NCBI GenBank assembly: GCA_043228905.1
Contig: JBHGNT010000004.1
Location: 19,902,001 to 19,966,000 of the forward strand
Origin: Azolla caroliniana
Lineage: Eukaryota > Plantae > Polypodiophyta
Reading direction: 5' to 3'
Length of the DNA stretch: 64,000 nt
Shown here: positions 42,144 to 58,415 of the stretch, in pieces
Layout of the letters: every line of letters starts with the position of its first letter
Position numbering within the stretch: the stretch's first letter is position 1
Translations under genes and position numbers: made by a program
The notes under the pieces: generated by a model
Databases searched by the model: none
Told to the model about the DNA's origin: nothing
What the model saw: the letters and a program-made list of their open reading frames with translations, nothing else

Positions 42144-44808
42144 TGTTGAGAGTCAAACCCAATTCCCCAATGTAATGGCTTTCACATTGCAAATGGACAC
42201 ATTAGGTTCATGCTAGTTTTGTAAATAGTAGAAAGGGCAATTGCCCTAAGTTAGTTGGTACTTAAACTAACTCTTTTGTAACCTACTTATTGTTGGATGT
42301 ATTTTTGGTTGTAACCGTTTCTTGCTAATACGACTTATTGTTCTTTGTCTCTAATTTCACTCTCCCTCTCTATTTGTTTTACACACACACACACACACAG
42401 TTTCCTTCTGTTGCACGACATCACATACACTCTCCATTTGTTTTCATGGTATCAGAGCATGTGGTAGTTTGATAAAAACTCGCTCAACTATGTTGTGTCC
42501 CACGTCAACGATTAAACAGAACCGGTCCAACAATTGAGAAGAAAAACGACACCATGAACACTCAATTGGGAAGTGCTCTTCCTACCAAGAAACTTGACAC
42601 ATTGAACTTTGTATCTTGGGAATACAATATGCACCAATACCTTGTCAGCCAAGGATATCGAAGTTACATCAAAAGAGCTCAAGAAAATCAACCCAACCCA
42701 ACATGGGAGCAAGTGGCAAGTCGCCTGTTGTACTGCCTAGCATCATGAGTCATGTGTCCCACGTCAACGATTAAACAGAACCGGTCCAACAATTGAGAAG
42801 AAAAACGACACCATGAACACTCAATTGGGAAGTGCTCTTCCTACCAAGAAACTTGACACATTGAACTTTGTATCTTGGGAATACAATATGCACCAATACC
42901 TTGTCAGCCAAGGATATCGAAGTTACATCAAAAGAGCTCAAGAAAATCAACCCAACCCAACATGGGAGCAAGTGGCAAGTCGCCTGTTGTACTGCCTAGC
43001 ATCATGAGTCATGTGTCCCACGTCAACGATTAAACAGAACCGGTCCAACAATTGAGAAGAAAAACGACACCATGAACACTCAATTGGGAAGTGCTCTTCC
43101 TACCAAGAAACTTGACACATTGAACTTTGTATCTTGGGAATACAATATGCACCAATACCTTGTCAGCCAAGGATATCGAAGTTACATCAAAAGAGCTCAA
43201 GAAAATCAACCCAACCCAACATGGGAGCAAGTGGCAAGTCGCCTGTTGTACTGCCTAGCATCATGAGTCAATGATCACATGCTCAACTACATTTGAGAGG
43301 CAAAAATGCGGAAAGAAGCATGGGGCAGCACATGCATCAGGAGTAGAACAATATTTAACAAAGGGATATGTCGATCACCAACTACACCTTGAAGATCAAG
43401 GAGTTGTGCGACGCCCTCGGATCTATCAATGTCAGCATCAATGATGATGAAATGGTGCAAATATGCCTCAGTGGCTTAGCACCACGACTCGCCTCGATCA
43501 GATTGGCCATCCTCGCAAGGGAGAATCCTCCCTCCTTTTTCGACCTTCAGTCGATGTTGTTAGTCGAAGAAAATCACGCCCAAACAAGGAGCAATGCGGC
43601 AGATGGTCAGATGCTCTACTCCGACAAGGGAAGAGGATTTGGCCAAGGAAACAGAGGTTGAGTCCAAAGAAGCCAACATGGTTGGCAAACTTGAGAGCTC
43701 GACTCCCACTATTTGCGAGAGGCCAAGAACACACCAAGGGAGTTCGGCAAAAGGGGGAGCCATCATGCCATACCAAGTCGCCAAAATAGCTTGATCGAAT
43801 GTGAGTACTATGGAAAATTCAACCACTATGAAGAGGAGTGGCGAAAGAAGAAATGAGAGTCTGCTTCGACCAATTGACAACTCACGAACTATGCTACGAA
43901 TTCCGACAATGACGACCATGGCAGAATGTTTGTTATGAGGCATAAAGCACACTCAATGTTGGCACCGAGTCCGAACAACACCTTTGCTTTAGAAATCTCA
44001 TGACATCTCACGAAGATTGGTTTTGAGAGTTGCGAAAGCCCGATCGATCGACCTAGCTATGTCAAAACTAGGGATGACACAATTCACCCCATCCAGCATG
44101 TTGGAAATCTCTCGTTTAGGAACGATGGCAAACAAACCTACATCAAGGTCGTCTTGCATGTTCTAACCATCACGAAAAATCTAGTCTCGGTCGGCTAGAT
44201 TGTAGAACAAGGCAGGCAAGTACAATTCAATCACGAAGGGTGCTTTATTGAAAAAGACGGTCAACTTGTTGCTCTGGGTTGAAGAGAAGGTCGAATGTTC
44301 ATCCTCGAGTCGAATGAGGTGAAGTCGTCCATATTTGTGAAAGGCCTTAAAGTCGACACCGATTTGAAAGTGTGGCACAAGAGAATCATCCACATTAATC
44401 TCTAGAAGCTCCAGAACATGAAGGTGATAGGAGTTGTCGTCAGACTTTCGACCTTCACCAAAAGAGAAAGCATTGGAGTTTGTGGAGCTTGCCAATTTGC
44501 CAAGCAACGCCAAATTCCATTCCTGAAGGAGAGGAATGTGAGTATAAGAGTCTTGGACGTAGTCCACTTGGATGTATGGGGACTGGCCCAAATGACTACA
44601 TTCCGCAGATGTTGATGTTATGTGACGTTCTTTGACGACTTCTCTAGGTACACTTGGATCTACAAAAGAACAAACTATTCATTTTTAAATGTCTAGAAGT
44701 GTCTGAAGTCGAAAAAGTAACATGTCGTCATGTCTGATGCTTTCGATCGGATGGAGGAAAGGAGTAATTTTCAGACGAATTTACAACCTATCTCCGAAAG
44801 GAAGGAAA
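42144..44808 (+). mobile_element. Truncated Ty1/copia (5' LTR 42144-42446, gag, PR, partial INT), related to the 10334-18806 element
   Basis: LTR TGTTGAGAGTC...CA, PBS TGGTATCAGAGC at 42447, gag GSALPTKKLDTLNFVSWEY. Ends within the integrase. Confidence 0.88.
42494..43270. repeat. Three identical 259-bp tandem units
   Basis: Units start at 42494, 42753 and 43012. The ORF track shows identical peptides at 259-bp spacing. Confidence 0.97.
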
Positions 44809-45140
44809 CCATGTTTGCATTTGTAAGTGGAAGGATAAAGAATATTTTGTTTGATTTCAAGGTTTTTTAAACCATCTCACGAAAAATGTGATACCAGTAT
44901 CACATGTGCTCAAAGACTCAATGGAAAAGCTTAAAATCTCACCATGTCATAAAATTGAAAATTCATAAAATTAGGTAAATGTCACAAATTTACGCCATGT
45001 TGTTTACCGTAAAATTAACAACTCATGGTTTTTATAACAAACAATATTCACAAGGAGCGATTGATTTAAAAACAATTAAGCTTTATATAAATCGAGTTCT
45101 TACAAGCTTATATTGTTATCATTTCATGCCAAAAATACAA

Positions 45141-47850
45141 TCAAGAGTTATTCCTCTCATAAGAATCACTACTATAGAGCCTAGTATACAATGGTGACTC
45201 ATCCTCCTCCTCATTAGATGTACCAATCAAAGCATTGTCTTCATCTAACAACAAATCATGTGTAGAAGATCTAGTCTACCTTCGATCTGAGAAGCCTTGT
45301 AAACTTGACAATTTCTCTTTTATTATGTTTGTTGTTGACTTCCTTAAACATCCAACTTTTGCCAGTGTAAAGTCATACACAATGATATCGCCCTCTTACA
45401 TGTCAAGGGTCGATGTGTTACGAATATTCCTTTTCCACTTTCTATTTCCTCTTGACTTTGGGCATTCCATCATCTCCAATGCATACTTGCCTATAAATGC
45501 ATTCTTGCTTGTAGTGTTGTACCAATGCACCTTTGTAGACTTTATCTAATTTTGGTTTTCATGCATCACCACATCCAATACTTTACCAATCAAAAATTGG
45601 TGCCCTAGGTCATTTTCATCTGCAAGTGTGACAATTAACATCCCAACCTTTATTTCTTGCATGTTTCCTTGCCAACGGGCTTCAATTGCTTTTATCCACC
45701 TTGGTCCCACATAAGTGTCTCTTTGTTGTGGATGGAGCAAGTTGTCAAGATCTGGATTAGGTGCATGTGGTGGTGTTTGAGAATCAGACATGTGTTGTAC
45801 GAACCAAGTAAATGGTATTTGCAAGGGCCAAATACCAGTTAAGGAATTGTCAATAATTCCTTGTTGATCACTAAAGAACATGTCCCACCATGACGTATCT
45901 TGTGGTCCAAGATACTTCTTTGCATTATCAATGTGCTTTCTTTTATCTTGTAAGGCTTGCATCCAGAAGTTCATTTGTTCATCTATCAACTCACTTTGCA
46001 TTTCCTTTTTCGTCTCAATTGGCATTTGTTTTGCACCATAAATGGTAGTAGATGGCATATAAGCAAGAACTGGCAACCGCCTTCTGGCTCCCATTGGGGG
46101 GAAGATGAGTTGCATGCAACATTGTAGAAACACTTATACCAATTTTCTTTATCAAGAATACGCTATTATTGTTCAATTGGGCTAACACTTTCACATTCCC
46201 CTCCCCGCCATCTGTTATGTATCTCTTAAAATCGTATGTCTCCTTTAAGTGGATCACATTCAGACGTGGCGTATATGCATCACAAATGACGTCAAATAAC
46301 TTTGGTAATGTGAAAACATCATATTAAGATAACTGTCTGGAGAATGTACTGAACATCTGATCAATATGGTCATGTATGTGACCAACCAAAAGGAAGTTAA
46401 CTTTCACTTTCTTGAACACACCCTGTTTCACCAACATACTCAAATATCCAAAGACAGTTGAATTCTTGTTCTCCCTAATAGTGTTGTCCAATTGAATGTA
46501 GGGAACAGGGGGCAATGGATGCCCCCAATTCATCATAACCCTTTGAATCACAATAATTATTAGGTTGGGGTCATTGTGGACATTTGGGTAAGTAATGAAG
46601 ACGCGAGGTTTAATTGTCCCATTATAAGCCAAACAACCCACCAAGTGCATCTGAACAAGACATTCGTCATTGAGGTCTTTCGGAAGCCTCCTAAGGTGAG
46701 ATAGACACGTCTTCTTTTGGTCCATACCATCAACCATTAAACACATGTAATGTTCTAGTTTCTTCAATGACTTCTCTCTGTGGTGCATCGCTTTTTTCCT
46801 CTCTAGTGCTTGTGCTTCTCAATGGTCCTGTAACATCTTTTTATTGATGTCCTTCTCCTTTGTTGTTTTGGCACCTTTAGTTGAGCTCTTTAGGTTTGCA
46901 CAAATAGAACAATACCCCATGTGTACTTTCCGAGGTATAACAATGTTAGTGAATCGTGTTGACCACAATCTTGTGAACTGATTGTAGGTGACGTACTTAT
47001 CACTTGACGTTAACATATTCAATCTGTAGGCATCTTATACTTCTCGTCTTGTGTAATTATCTGAAAGATGCAACCTACTTGTACTTGGCATTACTTCACA
47101 GTTAAGCTTGAAGTAGCTCTTCATCCAACCAATTGCATTTCTTCCGGATGCACCTTTCATACTTGGAACATCGCCGCCAATGATACTAATATCACCGTTG
47201 AGAACTCGTTGTTGCACTCTATGTAATCTCAAGTTGCTAACACATAACGAAATCTTGAATGCAACTCTACAACATTGTAGTCCATAGAAGATATAATACT
47301 CAAATGAGAACTTGATGTTTGACAATATGTCCTTCACCATTTGCATGTGTGTCATAAGATAAGTGTCTTGCTCATCACCAGTGAGTGAGAAATAGTATTT
47401 CCTTAATGACATCAACTTATCCTTTCCAATTGCGGACATGCACCCACGTGCACAACAATCTTTGCCGACATCTATTTTAAGTTGGTTCTCAGATGTCACA
47501 AGGGCAAACCTATCTCGGTTGTTTTGATGTGGGACTCTCCTGAAATGCATAAGGCTTGCCGAGTTGATCTCTTCTACACTTGCACTTATTGCCTCCAATC
47601 GTGTAATGTCAATCTGTCCACCAACCGCAACGCTTGTGCCAACATGATTGTCGTTTCCCTTATTGGTTGAATCCTTAGTGTAGTGGTACTCGTTAATGGA
47701 GAACTCATGACTTAGCTCCATAGTTTGTGGAGACCGAGGAGAGGGGGCACCAACGCAATATTCCTCCACAGAAAATGGTGAACTTGTTGCCATTTGATAT
47801 TCGTCCACTAAAAATGTTCAGTTCGGGCTCATTGTTTCAAGCTCAGATGA
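45141..47850 (-). pseudogene. Sola-like DDE DNA transposase (decayed), with a possible SH3/Tudor/BAH-like C-terminal region
   Basis: Collinear ORFs 47035-47808, 46819-47022, 46324-46788, 46015-46257 and 45546-46133. Cys-rich N-terminus (CCARGC, CCRVAF), CSICANLK, and catalytic-type motifs VDGMDQ, QLDNTIRENKN and VGHIHDHIDQMFS. The superfamily assignment is from recalled motifs. Confidence 0.75.
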
Positions 47851-48124
47851 TCCTAACAAAATTACACTCTTCAGGTTCAATGGAGGTGCTCTTGAAGAAT
47901 ATATGAGAGCACTCAACAAATGAAGGTGTATATATGCTTTATCTATGTATATGTATGTATGTATGTATATATATATATATATTTAATCATATATAAAAAG
48001 AGATATATTAATATGTTTTATACTATAGTTGAACTAACTATAGTTTCAGGTTCAATGGAGGTGCTCTTGAAGAATATATGAGAAGAGCACTTAACAAATG
48101 AAGGTGTATATATGTTTTTATCTA

Positions 48125-48162
<38 letters not shown>

Positions 48163-48478
48163 ATCATGTTATATAATATATAAGGTGTACTATGCCTAAC
48201 TAGAGTTAGTATTAACTAACCCCCATTATCTTTTGGGTGTCCTATAAATAGTGGGTAGATTTTATTTTTAGGATAGAGCACAGAGCACAGAGCATAGCAC
48301 ACCGACATACGCAGACCTTGAAACAGAGCACGCGCACGCATCTACCTCGACAGGCATGCATCCACAGACCACACGCACACAAATAATCACAGAGCATACA
48401 CTCACAAACATCCACAGAGCACGCACACATAGCCACCCACAAAGCATGCACAGACATCCACATAACACTGAAGACCTA

Positions 48479-51400
48479 TGTAGAAAGTAGCGTGCGGAAG
48501 CAAGTATAAAGACAGAACAGAAGGGAGAATACTCAGGTTTAATGGAGAGCTTGAGCTTACACAGTATACACAGTAGAGACCGAGAGAGTTTGAGAGGAGA
48601 CACCAAAAGGAAGGTATATCATTAAAGACAAAAAACAACAATACATATATGTGTTCAATGAACAGTTTGTACAAGCCCTAGAAGGACTGACTGGAGTACT
48701 GACTGTACTTCAATGCTCATTAAGAGCTCCTACACTAACTCCCAAATATATTCCTCACGGAATATCTTTCCTAACGGCCTGACCGATCGGTCCCAGTCGA
48801 TCCGGTCCTCGGCTTCTTCAGCCGATCCGGCCGATGTTGAGCTTGTCTCTCAACACTCCCCCTCAAGCTCAACTTGAGGCTCTTCGGGATCTTCACAACT
48901 CCGGTTCCTCCTGGCTTCACGCCTTGCTCGCGCTCCTCGACCTGTTCGACTCTGCGCGCTTCGACCCTTACGGTCGGCTTGTCTGCTCATGTGACCCTTA
49001 TCAGCTCTTCTGATGTTGCGGTGTTGACACTTCTTCTGCTGCCTTTTCTTCCGCTTGGGCCTCGGTTGATTCAACGTGTTTGAATCAAACATCCGAACCG
49101 ACTCGGCTACTTCCGATTGGTTTTCGCTCTCGTCCGAGTTGGCTATCTCCAACTCGTCTTCGGTCTTCTCACCCTCGATGGCGTCATCTCCCCCATGCGT
49201 GGTTGGCTTCGGCTGCTCCCCTTCTGTCCGCTTTCGGACTTTTTCGTGGATGCGCCCTCGGCTTCATCAGCCGATCCGAACTCAAACTCGACAACCGAGT
49301 CAACCGACTCGGACTCGGTGTCGCGGTCTCCGCTCCTTTCCTACTGCCTTGCTTGGTCGTTCGGGACTGTTCTCCCCCTCAAGTATGGCACGTCGAGGTG
49401 ACGCAACCCGAGCGCACCTGAGAATTGCCGCAACTTGTCCAGACCAAGCGGCTTTGTGAAGATGTCGGCAGTCTGCCGATCCGTCGGCACGTACTAAAGT
49501 TCGACTTCACCGGAAAGGACACGCTCACGGACGAAATGGTAATGCACCTCAATGTGCTTGGTCCGTGCGTGGAAAACGGGGTTCTTCGCGAGCTGGATGC
49601 TGCTGAGGTTGTCACAGTAGATCGTCATCGGATCTGACACCTCCACCTGTAGGTCCTGAAGTAGCCGCTTCAACCATATGGCTTCGCATGTCACGACAGC
49701 CGCTCCTCGGTACTCAGCTTCGGTGCTCGACAGTGCAACTGTCGGCTGCTTCTTACTGCTCCACGTGATCGTGGCACTCCCAAGGGAGAATGCGTATCCG
49801 GACGTGGATCGGCGATCGGCGGCGTTGCCAACCCAATCAGCATTGGTGTAGCCGACTAACTGCGCGGCTGCACCAGTCCGATATAGCAGTTCTCGGTCCT
49901 TAGTGCCACTTACGTACCGCAGTACGCATTGCGCACACTGAAGGTGCTCCTCGGTAGGTCGCGCCATGAACTGAATGATCACCCCGACTAGATAACTGAG
50001 GTCGGGTCGGGTGATGGTCAAGTATATGAGGCTTCCGACAATTTGTCGGAACCTCGTTGGGTCGCATACCTTTCCCGTATCGGGACGAAGCTTGACGGTT
50101 CTGTCCAGAGGAGTCGAGACGGACTTACAGTCGGCCATCCCGAATTTGAAGAGCATACTCAACACGTAATGACGTTGGCTGATCAATATGCCTTCGGGGG
50201 TACGGATCACTTCGATCCCGAGGAAGTAATGAAGGTCCCCCAGATCCTTCATGTCGAACGATGCCGCAAGCTGGAGCTTCACGCGGTTGATTTCACCTAG
50301 GTCGGCGCCGGTGATGGCCAAGTCATCGACATATAGTCAGTGTGCGCAATGCGTACCGCAGTACGCATTGCGCACACTGAAGGTGCTCCTCGGTAGGTCG
50401 CGCCATGAACTGACTGATCACCCCGACTAGATAACTGAGGTCGGGTCGGGTGATGGTCAAGTATATGAGGCTTCCGACAATTTGTCGGAACCTCGTTGGG
50501 TCGCATACCTTTCTCGTATCGGGATGAAGCTTGATGGTTCTGTCTAGAGGAGTCGAGACGGACTTACAGTCGGCCATCCCGAATTTGAAGAGCATACTCA
50601 ACACGTAATGACGTTGGCTGATCAATATGCCTTCGGGGGTACGGATCACTTCGATCCCGAGGAAGTAATGAAGGTCCCCCAGATCCTTCATGTCGAACGA
50701 TGCCGCAAGCTGGAGCTTCACGCGGTCGATTTCACCTAGGTCGGCGCCGGTGATGGCCAAGTCATCGACATATAGTAGAATACTAATCAGTCCGAGTCGA
50801 CCTTTCCGGATGAACAGGGAAGAGTCCGATTTTGACGTGACGAAGCCCATCCGACTCAATTGTTGCGTGATCTTCGCGTTCCAGGCACGCGGGGCTTGCT
50901 TCAGTCCGTAAAGGGACTTCTTCAGTCGGCATACTGCCGAGGAGTTCGTTCCGGAGTGAAATCCGGGGGGCTGTACCATGTACACTTGTTCCTCAAGGTC
51001 ACCTTGCAGGAACGCATTCTTTACATCCATCTGATGTAAGTGCCACCCCTTCGCCGCAGCTACTGCGAGCAAAACACGGACGGTTGTCATTTTCGCGACC
51101 GGCGCAAATGTCTCATCGTAGTCGATGCCGTGTTTCTGCGCGTAGCCCTTTGCCACTAGCCGAGCCTTGTACCGGTTAACGGAGCCATCGATGTTGTACT
51201 TGACCTTGTACACCCACCTACACCCGATCGGTTTTACCCCTGTTGGTGCGTCAACTAGGTCCCAGGTCTTGTTCTCCGCCAATGCGTGCATCTCTTCCTC
51301 CATCGCGGCACGCCAATTCGCGTCTTTAGCCGCTTCTGCGTAGCTCTCCGGCTCACGCACTTCCGCTACACGGGTCATGTACGCATAATGATGCGCCATG

Positions 51401-54400
51401 TACTCGTTGTATCCGAACCGCAAAACAGGATTCTTCTGGCGGGTAGATCGGCGTAACCTCACATTAGCCGATGTCGAGGCCTTCTCGGTCGACGCGGTCT
51501 TCATCTTTAAAGACCTGTCACCGGTTCCCTCGGAGTCGGACTTGCCTCGGTCTGACTCGTTCCTTTCCGTGCCGGAATCTGACACCTTCTTCTTCCCTTT
51601 CTCTTTGCGCATAAGCCGTCTCCTCGGCTTCCTCCGCGGGGAATGCACGACCGAGTCTCCACTACTCGCCGGCTCTTCATCAAATTGGTCGTACCGACTC
51701 AGTCTTCCAATCGGTCCACCTAACTGGAGTGAAATTGGACTCTCTTTGCGGGTCTCGATTTCGGGCTCATTCGGAGGCATCTCGGCCTCGCTGACCTCTT
51801 CATCAGAGCTCAGATTGGAGTCGAGGTTCGTAGTCGGGGACAGGTACCAGGACGCAGACTCGTCAACCACAACGTCGTGGCTGACACGCGCTTGTTTGGT
51901 GCGAGGGTTATAGCACTTATAACCCTTCTGCTCGTCCGAGTAACTGACCAAGATGCATCTCTCGGCCTTTGCGTCCAGCTTCCTCCTTTTCTCCTTCGGT
52001 ATATGCACATACGCAATGCTATTGAACACCCTCAAGTGTCGTAAGTTCGGCTTCGTTCCGAAGTATAGCTCGTGCGCCGACACCTTGTCTCCGATCCGGT
52101 TCTGGATGTATACCGCGGTCCTTACCGCCTCGGCCCAATAGAACTTGGGCAAGCTCTTCTCCTCCAGCATTGCCCGTGCCGCTTCCACAACTGACCGATT
52201 CTTCCTCTCGGCCACGCCATTCTGCTCCGGCGTGTATCTACAACTGAATTCGCGCCGAATTCCCATTTGTTGTAGATAACCGTTGAATTGACCGGAAAAG
52301 TACTCTTTCCCGCCATCCAACCGTAGACACTTGATCTTTCATCCCGTTTCCGTTTCCACGAACCCTTTGAGGTCCCGGAAACAGTTGAAGACTTCGCTCT
52401 TCCTCTCAATGAGGTAGATCCACGTGTGCCGCGTGTGGTCGTTGATGAAGGAGACGAAATATCGGCTCCCACCAAGACTAACGTTTTGTGCCGGCCCCCA
52501 CACATCGGAGTGTATAAGGTTGAGCTTGTTCCGGCTCCGGTTTCGCTCGTTGGGGAAAGGAAGTCGGTGTTGCTTCCCGAGCTGGCAGGCTTCACAAATT
52601 TGTGCCTTTCGGCCACTAAACTTGGGCAATCCGAACACTACCTGTTTCGATTGCAGATCTTGAAGCCGCTGGTAGTTGACGTGGCCTATCCGCTTGTGCC
52701 ACAAGTCGATGTCCGACTCGACTTTTTGTCCCTTTGCGAACATTGCGGTGCCGCCGTCAGTGGAGTCGAGTATGAACATCCTCCCGTCTCTGCGCCCTTG
52801 CGCAATCACACGACCTTCTTCCTCAATGAAGCACCCGAGGTGTGTAAACCGAACCTCCATCCCTTGGTCGACGATCTGTCCGACCGAGACCAAGTTCTTC
52901 GTGATTGTCGGAATGTGCAGCACGTTCATGAGTTTCCCTTTCTGCCCGACATGGCTAAGGGGAACTTCTCCGACATTCGCGATCGGATGCGGAGTGTCGT
53001 CTCCAGTTGTGACTACTCCAGGTTGTATCGGTTTTTCAAGGTACGAGAACCACTCCTTATGGCTCGTCATGTGGTTTGACGCGCCGGAGTCTACGTACCA
53101 CACCTCGTCCGATCTCGGGGTGGTTCGTTTCATTGAGTTTGCTTCGTGTCTCGTCACGAAGGCAGACCCTTCTCCGGCTCTTCCGGAGTCTTCGGCGTAG
53201 TGCGATCGCTGCCGATTTCCCTTGTCGGTATGTCTGAAGCCGTTTCCGGAACCGGTTCTCTCCGACTCAGCGCGCTTCTTCCAGCACTCACTTTCCCTGT
53301 GGCCTTTCTTGCCACAGTACTAGCACTCTGTGATGGCCTTCCCTTGCCGGTTCTCATCGCTTCGACTCCCCCTGTTTCCGGAGGGTCCGGAGTTGTTGTC
53401 GGCATCACTTCGGTGCCTTCTTCCTTGATCTCGTCGGCCGCCTCCATTGCGCGCCGACTCGCCTCGTCCTCCACGTCCACGGGGCCTATCTCCCTCCGTG
53501 TACAACATTCTGCTGTCGGTGTGCGTGCTTGTAGACGCACCCGCGTGGTTCTCCTCTACCAGGAGCATTGACTATAAGTCGAAAAAGGACGACGTATTCT
53601 CCCGGGTACACACAGCCGTTCGGAACGCTCCGAACTTCGACGCCAAACCTCTGAGACAGATCTAGACCATCTCACTCTCCTCGATGTTTACCTCTATGGA
53701 GGCAAGGGAGTCACAAATATCCTTGATCTTCGAGGTATAGTTCGCCACCGACAAGTCGCGTTGTCGTAGGTTGCTCATCTCCTGTCGGAGCTGAAGCTTC
53801 CTGGCTGTGGTGCTCGCGGCGAAAATCTTCTTCAGATTTTCCCACGCACCCTTCGGCATCTTTGCATCCCGAACATAGCTCAATAGCTGTTCACCCACAC
53901 ACGACGCGAAGCAGTATAATACCCTGCTCGCCGATTGCTCCCACGACGGGAAGTCTCTGTGTGTCGATTCGGGTACCGCGTCATTAGCTCCTTCGACATA
54001 ACTCCAGTAGCCGTGCCCGAGCAGGTACTGGTGCATCTTGTAGGACCAAGACACGTAGTTGGTTCTGTCGAGCTTCTCTGTTGGAAGCGAGCTCGCCATG
54101 CCTCTATCCATCGTTCTTCTTGTTCTTCTTCGTCAAGCTGTGTCGGCTGCAGAGAGGTTCTCAACCCTCGCGCTCTGATACCATGTAGAAAGTAGCGTGC
54201 GGAAGCAAGTATAAAGACAGAACAGAAGGGAGAATACTCAGGTTTAATGGAGAGCTTGAGCTTACACAGTATACGCAGTAGAGACCGAGAGAGTTTGAGA
54301 GGAGACACCAAAAGGAAGGTATATCATTAAAGACAAAAAACAACAATACATATATGTGTTCAATGAACAGTTTGTACAAGCCCTAGAAGGACTGACTGGA

Positions 54401-54560
54401 GTACTGACAGTACTTCAATGCTCATTAAGAGCTCCTACACTAACTCCCAAATATATTCCTCACGGAATATCTTTCCTAACGGCCTGACCGATCGGTCCCA
54501 GTCGATCCGGTCCTCGGCTTCTTCAGCCGATCCGACCGATGTTGAGCTTGTCTCTCAACA
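48479..54560 (-). mobile_element. Young full-length Ty1/copia element
   Basis: 377-bp LTRs at 48479-48855 and 54184-54560, with 3 mismatches seen. Perfect TSD ACCTA. iMet PBS at 54172-54183. PPT at 48856-48867. Confidence 0.97.
49380..54111 (-). pseudogene. Copia gag-pol with a few stops and an internal ~425-bp duplication
   Basis: MDRGMASSLPTEKLDRTNY gag, WYVDSGASNHM, DGGKEY, QMDVKNAFLQG, YVDDL, NPVFHARTKHIEVHYH. Confidence 0.95.
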
Positions 54561-54740
54561 ACCTACATAGACCGCATCGGACTTCGAGGACCTCGACACA
54601 AACCTCAACTTAGAGCACCATGACAACAACCTTGATTCCTGATACCATGTCCTCAAAGAAGACAGAGCAATCGGATTCCATGTATGTTTTTTGTCGATTG
54701 TACAAACTTTTTACAACCAACACACACTTTGATCACACAT

Positions 54741-55053
54741 TGTACACTAAATCGATACAACGTATTGAGTTGGTGTACATAAGCCATAGTATGCACACCA
54801 ACTTGATACAATATCGAAAAAACAAGACTTTTTACAACCAACTCGATACAATGTATTGAGTTGGTGTGCATACTATGGCTTATGTACACCAACTGGATAC
54901 ATTGTATGAGTTGGTGTTAAAAAGTAGTGTTATGTACACCAACTTGATACAAAAAAGTAGTGTTATGCACACCAACTCGATACATTGTATCAAGTTGGTG
55001 TTAAAAAGTAGGGTTATGTACACCAACTAGATACATTGTATCGAGTTTCTGTG
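54741..55053. repeat. Array of ~31-bp palindromes CACCAACTCGATACA(T/A)TGTATCGAGTTGGTG
   Basis: About five full copies (near 54741, 54837, 54886, 54969, 55020) and two half copies (near 54795, 54936). The spacers are also related by inversion. Confidence 0.9.
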
Positions 55054-57200
55054 CATAATATGTCCTTGTGTGCAGTTTAGGGCTATTTAAATCCTTTTTA
55101 TTAGTAAAGTAAGGCCAAAATGTAGATTTTTAGTCTACTATTTTACACTATTGTCATTTACATAGAGTAAAAACTTCTAGCTTGACTAGTTCTTAGAAGC
55201 CAATTTTGGTCACTAAAACCTTTAATTAATGCCTTGTTTAGTGTTTTGGCCATGATTGAGGTTGTGAATGAGTCTTTCGAAAGGTAAGTCACAACAATTT
55301 CTATTTACCATGCTCATAGATTTTATAAAATGTGTGTATATATATATATATACTAGATAGAATAATACCATGATATAAAGATAAATGTACTATGATAGAA
55401 TAATTTTAGTTGTCCATGCTTAGATCATTTTCAACTATGTTCTTACCATTAAGTCTACCGAAAATCAACATGGATGTGTTGTAAAGAAGTTCTGAATAAA
55501 ATACCAAAGCTCCCCAGGAGAGACAATGAAATTTAAAGAGATTACACACTCTCAAAAGCCCAAGAAATTGTTTTTTGATGAAGACTTGACTGGTGCGCCA
55601 TCTAATGAATTGAGCCAAATGAATCTTTTGGGTGCAAAATCTGATAAAGAGATTGCCTGATAGAGACATCACCGATTATGAGTGGGCAATGCAGTACATA
55701 GACTATGGCAAAAGAGTAGTGTTGTTAACCGCGCGAAACAAGGGTCATGACCAACTAGCAAAGGACCGCCCATTCAGTTATGGGAGGCTTTTGCGTTTAG
55801 ACTACGAAGACCCAGGCTCCAACACTTTAATATTACTTGTAGATTGTTGTTCAAAGGGGGTCCGAAAGATGTATGTTTCATAAGATCGGTTGGTGAAAGA
55901 GTCATGTGGGCCCGAATCCTTTAAGGAGGCAATTGAAACTATGGCTTCATTAATTTTAAACAGTTTGGTTCGGTTTTTATTATGAATAAATGGTTTGGTT
56001 TGGTTTCAAGGCTAAGAAACCGAACTGAACCAGGCCCATTGCTACATGTAAATGTATGTGGGTGTGTATGTATATGGGCGAATGCATGAAAAAAGCTATG
56101 TATGTGGTGGAATAATGTAGTTATTTATGTGCAATTAATTATTTTCATATGTATAACTCCGTGGACATGTCTTTTTTATTTTTATGGGTATATGTGAATT
56201 TAGGCATGTATGCGACTACGTAAGTGTGTTTTTGTGTGTATAGTTGTGCTTGTCTATGATAGCCTATGTGTGTGTATGCGCATGTGTAAGCGTTTTGTTT
56301 TTAATTGTGTATGTGGAATTGTATGCTAGTAAAGTTGGGGAAAGGGTGGTGGTTTGGTTTTTATTAAAAAGAGAGGGTATTTTGGGAGCATAAGATTCCC
56401 TCAGTTTTGAGGGTAGAGTTCAAAGGGGGGGTGTCTCACATAATGCTATTAGATCAATTATTTTGGTTAAATAGCGTAACAACATGAGATCAACTTGGAT
56501 AGAAAGTCTCTATTGAAGGTTAAGGTAGGGTTTAATAATCGTAAAGAAACACAAGCAATAAAGCATTAAGAAGTAATAGATATGTTTTGACAGTCATAAG
56601 GTCTAGATGAAAATCCAAGAAGTTATGATGAAGCAACTAGGTTGCTTGACATGGGACCAAGTGATTGAAGAATATCCATTGACGTTGTCATGAAGGATTC
56701 TGGCCATAGGAAGAAAACAGAACCGGATGCGCATGAACGGGGGTGCGCACGGATGCACACGAAAATTGTGTTTATGTACAAACATGTGTAAATAATATAG
56801 TATTAGTTGAATATTGAGGAATACTAGGTAGAAGGAATCTTATAAGTACTTTATGGTCACATGGATAGAGGAATAAAGGGGATTGACGGGAGGAGATCAA
56901 GGAGAGAATCTGGGATAGAAAAGCAGTTGTCTTAACAACATGATGTAACGATCTCTCCCTCATTGAACTATAAAAGGAGGGAGAGAAGACTGAGGAAGGG
57001 ATCTGCATTTTAGGAGGAGGGAAGTGATGCCGGTTTGCAATTAGGAGCTCTGTTGGTTCCCGGTGCTGTTATGTGTATCCATCTAGTGTTGTGGAGGCCT
57101 CTACTCGAGTAGGAAGCTCGTGGGTTAGTGTCTCTCTTCTTATTTGCATTCTAGAATTGTAGTATATTTCTTTGTTTAACTATTTTAATACTATTTTCAG

Positions 57201-58224
57201 TGGGCATTAGAAACCATGCCGAAACAAGAAACCAGGAGAAGTAAAAGACATCCATGATTTCCCAACGTCGTTTCTTGCTCACCTCGAAATGGCCCGGAAG
57301 GAAAAGGATCGTTGCTTAGTAAGAGCATATGATGTGGAGGATGATGGGACCTTCAAAAAATTTAGCCACAAGAAAGACATCACACGCGAATTATATTATG
57401 ATATTGTGGTGATGTGGCCGACATGAACCAAAAATTACCAAGAAAAGACTATACGTTGTTGATTGTTGACATATCATATGGTTTTAGAATGGCAGGATCA
57501 ACGTACGACGACGAACCTTTTAGGTTCAAGCAACAAGAGAAAATGGTGAAGGATTTCTCAAAAATGACGACTGCGTCCTTGTGGAGAATTGTAATATTTC
57601 ATAGTATGGACCAAGGCTACTTAGTTGCACAAGCGTTGAGATCTCGTTGTCACGGTCTCAAGAGCCTGGCATGGTATGGATACATGTCGACTACTTGAAT
57701 TTATATTTTGCTAAAGGTTGATTCATGCTAAATTTGATATCATGTGTCTTGTGGTTATTTCGTTGTCATGTGCAGGATAAAAACCAATATAAATAGAGGA
57801 CAAACATTTAGATTTGTGAATGCGATCGAATATGTAATTGTAGGATATTTTGATGAGATTAGAAAACAACGAATCAAATTGAATCTGTTGGTGTATCCAA
57901 CAATTACACGCAAATTGTGACATGTCACCACATGGTCTTGTCAACCTATATCAGAAGCCTCAATGACTCATTATGCACCTTCTAGAAATGTTCTCAAATG
58001 AAGGAGATTGGATATTGTATTTATTCTCAAGCACTAATAAAGTTTTATATAATGTATACTATGGTTTAAATAATTAAAATAACCTTGTAACTCGGTTAAA
58101 GCAATCGTCATTTTATTTTCGTGATAGGTGCTAGATCAACATGTGCTTTGAAGCTTTTTCACAATACTGTTGCACTGGAGAAAGACGATGAACAAGTCAG
58201 TTTCATTAACATGAGGATTAAAGA
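57201..58224 (+). pseudogene. Intron-containing beta-class amino-DNA methyltransferase (N6-adenine/N4-cytosine, N6_N4_Mtase-like), decayed
   Basis: Exons 57201-57673, 57776-58036 and 58128-58224 translate, with frameshifts and stops, to CGDVADMNQKLPRKDYTLLIVDISYG (motif IV, DPPY-like), LAW|IKTN...EYVIVGYF, VNLYQKPQ*LIMHLLEMFSNEGDWILYLFSST|G (motifs X and I) and CALKLFHNTVALEKDDEQVSFINMRI. The order IV...X-I is that of the beta class. Confidence 0.82.
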
Positions 58225-58415
58225 TGTTGAGTGGACAAGCTCAACCGGATCCTGATCGGCTAAATAAGCTAGAGCCGGATCGGAGTCCAGAATGAAGGAC
58301 CGGATCAGTGTCTAGATGGTATCCGGAACCAGGAGCCGGATCTGACTATAATCAGTAGGCTGCTAGAGGCCTATGAATCTAGCCTAGTACGTTCTCGCGG
58401 AAATCCGCGGGTACG
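58225..58415 (+). mobile_element. Copia LTR fragment truncating the methyltransferase
   Basis: TGTTGAGTGGACAAGCTC...GAGGCCTATGAATCTAGCCTAGTAC is similar to the reverse complement of the LTR segment 2590-2742. Confidence 0.7.

Follow-up and report, generated by a model that had tools for sequence, protein, structure and literature searches.

The closest described counterpart of the system treated here is Sola1-1_Ec32, a transposon of the brown alga Ectocarpus that carries, on the strand opposite to its transposase, an accessory gene of 1104 amino acids (aa) which joins a ParB-like domain to an N4-cytosine/N6-adenine DNA methyltransferase (MTase). It is 21.5 kb long, with imperfect terminal inverted repeats (TIRs) of 282 bp, AACCG ends and a target site duplication (TSD) of 4 bp, and its authors propose that the accessory protein binds and modifies its own element, an idea that so far has neither a test nor a named site (all from the accessible part of PMC12477816). 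Here we describe a plant family of such transposons, represented by a decayed copy at 45141-58224, plus a left end at 44808, in a stretch of 64,000 nucleotides from Azolla caroliniana (contig JBHGNT010000004.1, positions 19,902,001 to 19,966,000; hereafter the window, in whose positions all coordinates are given).

In the plant family, as in Sola1-1_Ec32, a gene for a ParB-like amino-MTase lies inside a DNA transposon and opposite to the transposase, with ~975 aa here against 1104 and with termini that start with AAC, a likeness drawn from the published description; the plant elements differ in their host, in their length of 6.0-8.6 kb and in their TIRs of 26-37 bp. Since the same architecture has been published for the brown-algal element, the family is less novel than first thought, and what is new is the plant family itself, evidence that selection acts on it, and a candidate site of binding. 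We document selection, co-divergence and a conserved palindrome within an intron, none of which the accessible part of PMC12477816 mentions for Sola1-1_Ec32. A literature search without Repbase and most subscription journals returned no land-plant version and no description of the palindrome, which is a weak negative, and the accessible part of PMC4738411 holds no description of a plant ParB-MTase transposon family. The plants supply compact, intact elements and a candidate site of 15-23 bp, and the idea of self-modification is therefore directly testable by binding and methylation assays. We put the probability that the cargo protein binds a site of its own element and methylates that element at about 50%; that the MTase gene is a true cargo of the transposon is almost certain.

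Linkage of the two genes

The relatives come from one metagenome scan with an alignment of the transposase, which gave 79 loci and covers the best 80 of 89 confirmed matches. An MTase gene lies upstream of the transposase in 16 of them, head-to-head in 15 and in the same direction in one (L030), and TIRs enclose both genes in five (L010, L019, L022, L033 and L040). The first-pass annotation of the window had suggested that a transposon carries the MTase, and had named two findings that would make the adjacency coincidental, namely transposase copies that are never near an MTase gene and a TIR that maps between the two genes. The relatives bear the suggestion out on both counts: chance adjacency is rejected by the linkage, and a TIR between the genes was tested for and rejected, as the TIRs lie outside both. 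Among 18 loci with at least 2.6 kb of upstream sequence, all 15 with at least 44% transposase identity carry the MTase gene. Three loci at 34-39% identity (L063, L064 and L073) have no MTase gene upstream, and were set aside as counter-examples because their true upstream sequence is shorter than about 2 kb or rearranged, the transposase gene of L063 being interrupted by an insertion of 7 kb and L064 being an inverted duplication. The latter (L064:1-13342) spans 3.9 kb, is 99.97% identical and lies around a distant transposase relative. Another three (L021, L041 and L052) end or are truncated short of the cargo. The linked loci cover three deep clades, and the same three are found in the cargo tree (careful search) and in the transposase tree (quick search), with one conflict between the trees, L023 against L030.

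Some observations weigh against the linkage. L011 has 2.15 kb of upstream sequence with palindrome sites and no cargo exon. Only 8 assemblies, seemingly of one series, supply the linked loci, and many of the linked contigs are repeats collapsed at high coverage, which can be chimeric, so that the 16 linked loci are not 16 independent insertions. In L030 (L030:365-5922) the cargo runs in the direction of the transposase, and the near-identical transposases of L023 and L030 go with different cargo genes, a mismatch that is either a module swap or an assembly chimera.

The MTase gene could be a passively captured host gene, as in Pack-type cargo, or a chance neighbour, without any role for the element, and in Ginkgo, Adiantum nelumboides, Riccia sorocarpa and Chara its homologues do figure among the annotated gene models of the host. 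The linkage over three deep clades, the enclosure by TIRs, the open frames and the strong purifying selection all argue against this, as does the same gene pairing in a brown alga, and we consider it largely refuted and very improbable. A true cargo gene is thus the reading we keep. The Ginkgo homologues are five similar ParB-MTase gene models (P0149 and P0228-P0231), which suggests that the element has spread to seed plants too, and in Chara braunii one gene model of 1825 aa (P0175) holds two ParB-like plus MTase units. Scans of viral contigs with the transposase, MTase and ParB alignments gave no relative, phages gave no close MTase match (best 23-32% identity) and none for the ParB part, and a pattern-based scan of prokaryote genomes gave no close relative; all three are weak negatives.

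The 28 tabulated element ends close with AACAC or AACAT, a terminus that the end-search patterns required, and the remaining TIR sequence differs among subfamilies and clades. A 4-bp repeat was seen at one of the four loci with both flanks (in L022, as AACA, a word identical to the terminus) and not at L019, L033 and L040, possibly collapsed repeats; in L030 no TIR pair was found. L040 (L040:177-6220) is an internal-deletion derivative that keeps both TIRs; it has lost the spacer and the palindromes, as well as the 5' half of the long cargo exon.

The cargo protein

In L010 the cargo gene has six exons for ~975 aa, with an exon 1 of 11 codons, an intron 1 of 891 bp and five further exons with short introns between them, and 418 bp separate its start codon from that of the transposase. 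The aligned exons are free of stops in 5 of 6 full-length copies, L040 having one stop and an internal deletion. The protein joins an N-terminal ParB-fold domain to a beta-class amino-MTase; the first-pass annotation had recognised the bacterial-type amino-MTase and overlooked the ParB-fold half, and so the full extent of the gene. A 12-base word just past the first splice donor, ACTGTACGGACA, is kept in 9 of 14 linked loci (L005, L009, L010, L016, L019, L022, L023, L024 and L029).

The MTase half has the permuted motif order IV, target recognition, I and a predicted MTase fold, and its relatives match PF01555; in motif order, profile and fold matches it resembles CcrM, M.RsrI, M.MboIIA and M1.HpyAVI. 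A model of the MTase domain of the relative P0164 (predicted local distance difference test, pLDDT, 83) matches CcrM best (E 2e-15), then M.BceJIV, N4CMT (E 1e-12), M.PvuII and M.RsrI. What separates the cargo from the bacterial beta-class enzymes is DIPY in place of DPPY, the N-terminal fusion to a ParB fold and the spliceosomal introns. Beta-class amino-MTases of bacterial origin are also found in eukaryotes as Marchantia DN4MT1 and bdelloid N4CMT, the latter a fold neighbour of the cargo. Those enzymes have TSPPY or SPPY, N4CMT has a chromodomain, and in the accessible parts of their descriptions neither is presented as transposon cargo. The SPPY/TSPPY motif, given there for N4-cytosine writers, is not seen in the cargo homologues, and identity with DN4MT1 was rejected, on motif grounds only.

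The MTase is under strong purifying selection. For L019/L022, the one measurable pair, a rough Nei-Gojobori count gives a ratio of nonsynonymous to synonymous change (dN/dS) of 0.023 in the MTase part, 0.078 in the long exon and 0.115 in the transposase; in the other 14 of 15 MTase pairs the synonymous sites are saturated, with nonsynonymous differences (pN) of 0.08-0.28. All six full-length genes have DIPYG in motif IV and DLFSGT in motif I, which binds S-adenosylmethionine. Among 92 homologues the commonest forms of motif IV are DIPY (38), DAPY (8), DVPY (7) and NIPY (6).

The substituted motif IV raises the question of whether the cargo is an enzyme at all. It could be a DNA-binding regulator, or a helper of the transpososome, that transfers methyl groups hardly or not at all, binds the palindromes and represses or organises the shared promoter, with an MTase fold that is only structural, and the family-wide D-I-P-Y instead of DPPY is what one would expect of such a protein. 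Against it stands that all six full-length genes keep the Asp, the Pro-Tyr and motif I despite saturated synonymous distance, that P0233, a bacterial-type PF01555 protein, has DLPY, and that the prolines of motif IV work via a backbone carbonyl (Box 1 in the accessible part of PMC4738411). We find a protein that binds without methylating rather unlikely, and a catalytically active cargo MTase probable from its predicted features. The mark would then probably be N6-methyladenine (6mA) rather than N4-methylcytosine (4mC), adenine being favoured because motif IV leads with Asp, as in the DPPY type and not the SPPY type; these types serve as a guide to adenine and cytosine, with a specificity that has switched repeatedly (accessible part of PMC8885841).

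For the other half, a model of the long exon (pLDDT 74.5) has Foldseek matches to ParB and Noc (E 2e-5 to 1e-4), and it aligns with PadC over 95 residues (Z 10.8, root-mean-square deviation, rmsd, 2.6) and with pNOB8 ParB over 206 (Z 8.5, rmsd 4.4), so a ParB/Srx fold followed by a helical region is predicted. The predicted fold, the helical region and the clustering of a palindromic site at one place are what the cargo would share with ParB/parS, Noc/NBS and KorB/operator; unlike in these systems, the nucleotide loop is without the usual arginines, there is a fusion to an MTase and the binding is a prediction. The loop reads GGSHSxEAR in the elements and GGCHSxEAR in Ginkgo, and the ParB core is 73-77% identical across subfamilies. 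In the language-model Atlas, the look-alikes of the ParB-like part (L010:3240-4199) are fungal DUF3723 clusters (0.95-0.96), a family which we take to be a Starship accessory gene; Pfam gave no confirmation.

The palindromic site and the proposed mechanism

The full site across the relatives is AAnTCGATRC-N3-GYATCGAnTT, with the core CGATRC-N3-GYATCG, which makes it 15-23 bp long. The spacers of the 14 linked loci (18.3 kb) have 62 exact matches to the core, spread over 13 of these loci, and the other 89 kb of the same 14 loci have none; the centre is three bases long in all but one of 63 cases. The whole set of 79 loci (371 kb) has 139 exact sites in 29 loci, every one of them upstream of the transposase. 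Of 22 loci in which an intact transposase start is preceded by 1 kb of sequence, 20 have the site, the exceptions being the deleted L040 and the decayed L069, and even the distant locus L048 has a perfect one. In the window an array lies at 54736-55062 and is homologous to arrays in L001, L005 and L007; the annotation had noticed it and placed it between the two genes, and it lies in fact within intron 1 of the MTase gene. Its four remaining sites (54753, 54844, 54978 and 55029) have one mismatch each, and three of these mismatches are changes of CG to TG or CA. At two mismatches the whole window has 7 palindromes, against 4.1 expected by chance, which is no excess, and the case for the palindrome therefore rests on the clustering and on the relatives. 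The site and the ParB core are alike in clades whose TIRs differ, from which we infer that the cargo protein, rather than the transposase, is the binder.

An active enzyme could also work elsewhere than at its own array, be it on target or host DNA throughout the genome or on RNA, with the palindromes serving as binding sites of the transposase or of a host factor, or as RNA hairpins. The binding of the cargo to the array is a prediction only, the RNA MTases METTL3/14 have the same fold, although with lower scores, and the palindrome can form a hairpin. The site is, however, not subterminal and occurs neither in the TIRs nor in the transposase gene, its arms are kept while the centre of three bases is free, as expected for the site of a binding dimer, and the top fold matches are DNA MTases. 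An enzyme that acts elsewhere therefore seems doubtful to us.

For a cargo that binds and methylates its own element, we envisage that the ParB-like domain would bind the palindromes of intron 1 as a dimer, in the manner of ParB/parS or KorB/operator, which by analogy is somewhat likely. The cargo would then methylate element DNA near the shared promoter, and the methyl mark would keep this promoter usable despite silencing by the host; for such an anti-silencing or promoter-licensing outcome the chances are about even. It is possible, and more tentative, that the element runs a private circuit, where the ParB-like clamp loads at the parS-like array and brings the MTase, and 6mA over the element shields it from host silencing by 5-methylcytosine (5mC). 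If true, this would be a sequence-addressed, element-encoded 6mA system of plants, long kept in a land-plant family, with the writer, the address and the target within 8 kb. The VANC proteins of the Arabidopsis VANDAL elements are anti-silencing proteins that cause loss of 5mC and act on short motifs accumulated in the non-coding DNA of the element. Like them, the cargo is a second transposon protein predicted to act on short motifs in its own non-coding DNA; unlike them, it is a predicted writer of another mark, and the sequences are unrelated.

Several points count against a self-binding, self-methylating cargo. The palindrome motif was derived from the same spacers that were first used for counting it. 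Pfam ParB models give no match to the cargo, and its loop does not have the arginine patch GxxRxxA of the bacterial ParB consensus. Neither DPPY nor SPPY occurs in any of the 92 homologues, and the cargo does not fit the canonical motif IV, [DNSH]PP[YFW]. The MTase fold, finally, was modelled from the relative P0164 and not from an element protein. If self-methylation is nevertheless real, it would be a localised source of 6mA/4mC in non-flowering plants, a new strategy against silencing and possibly a tool for site-targeted methylation.

The decayed copy in Azolla caroliniana

The copy in the window is dead. Its left TIR, which is degenerate, lies at 44808-44836, as aligned to the end of L002, with substitutions and a 19-bp deletion relative to intact relatives, whose DNA tracks the window to 44825; the host site is an older, decayed copia. 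The annotation had reported no TIR and thereby overlooked this one, and it was right to the extent that the right TIR, which we looked for within the window, was not found. The intronless transposase pseudogene (45141-47793, minus strand) agrees with the DDE transposase it had described. It matches DUF7869 (Pfam PF25273, E 1e-35), which is the only library match and which we take to be a Sola transposase family, and the transposon family is likely Sola1. The pseudogene is broken by 7 stops and, near 46,100, by a frameshift, and is in two blocks 78-80% identical to an intact relative of 908 aa; intact relatives, ~908 aa in length, are 74-78% identical, and Ceratopteris holds transposase relatives as well. 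The language-model Atlas gave no look-alike for the transposase core. The C-terminal region (45350-45700) is a conserved domain with the motifs FWIGKV and VHWY, possibly a barrel like that of chromatin readers, an impression formed with no family match.

The putative shared divergent promoter and 5' untranslated region (47794-54646) has a TATA-like word at 48243-48249 and is split by a young copia, a long terminal repeat (LTR) retrotransposon foreign to the element (48479-54560, minus strand), inserted upstream of the MTase start codon. As the annotation had stated, this copia has a clean TSD, ACCTA on both sides, and its LTRs of 377 bp differ by 3 mismatches. With the copia and one TSD removed, the coordinates put the two start codons 766 bp apart, that of the MTase being at ~54647, and not the ~3.3 kb given before.

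The beta-class MTase pseudogene, likewise recognised before, is on the plus strand and matched by its exon remnants. Micro-exon 1 (54647-54681) codes for a basic N-terminal peptide of 11 codons, matching L005 and L010, and the same first exon is found in 9 of 14 linked loci, with L005 closest. The long exon 2 is left as a 5' remnant (55451-55955), where tblastn with the L010 exons matches only residues 3-58 and 72-169 of 549; residues 170-549 (~380 codons), the ParB-fold core included, are gone. Exon 3 (56595-56685), a linker, is a remnant 73% identical to that of L010, and is followed by an insertion of ~520 bp (56686-57208), which we infer to be solo-LTR-like, and L009 bridges 56685 to 57209 across 127 bp. 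Exon 4 (57211-57676), the catalytic half of the MTase, has a frameshift near 57402 and DISY against the DIPY of intact copies. Exon 5 (57777-58035), with the target-recognition region, the NPYQKP motif and the start of motif I, is decayed, motif I with it, and the remnant of exon 6 (58127-58224) is cut by an LTR retroelement that starts at 58225, past which the window has no further part of the gene.

DNA contigs of four sequencing runs stack on both genes, at a depth that gives no copy number, and among the contigs shown none forms a joint across the copia. Two runs presumed to be RNA were aligned to 44600-58230; one gave short contigs on the 3' end of the transposase and on the copia, with no MTase splice joint, and the other nothing, which is uninformative on expression. 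Contigs in three of the four DNA runs connect 45349 with 58191 on opposite strands, with ~33 bases on the short side. Just before the older host copia, at 42494-43270, there is a tandem unit of 259 bp in three identical copies, and the young copia has an internal duplication of 439 bp in its polyprotein region, at 49913-50651.

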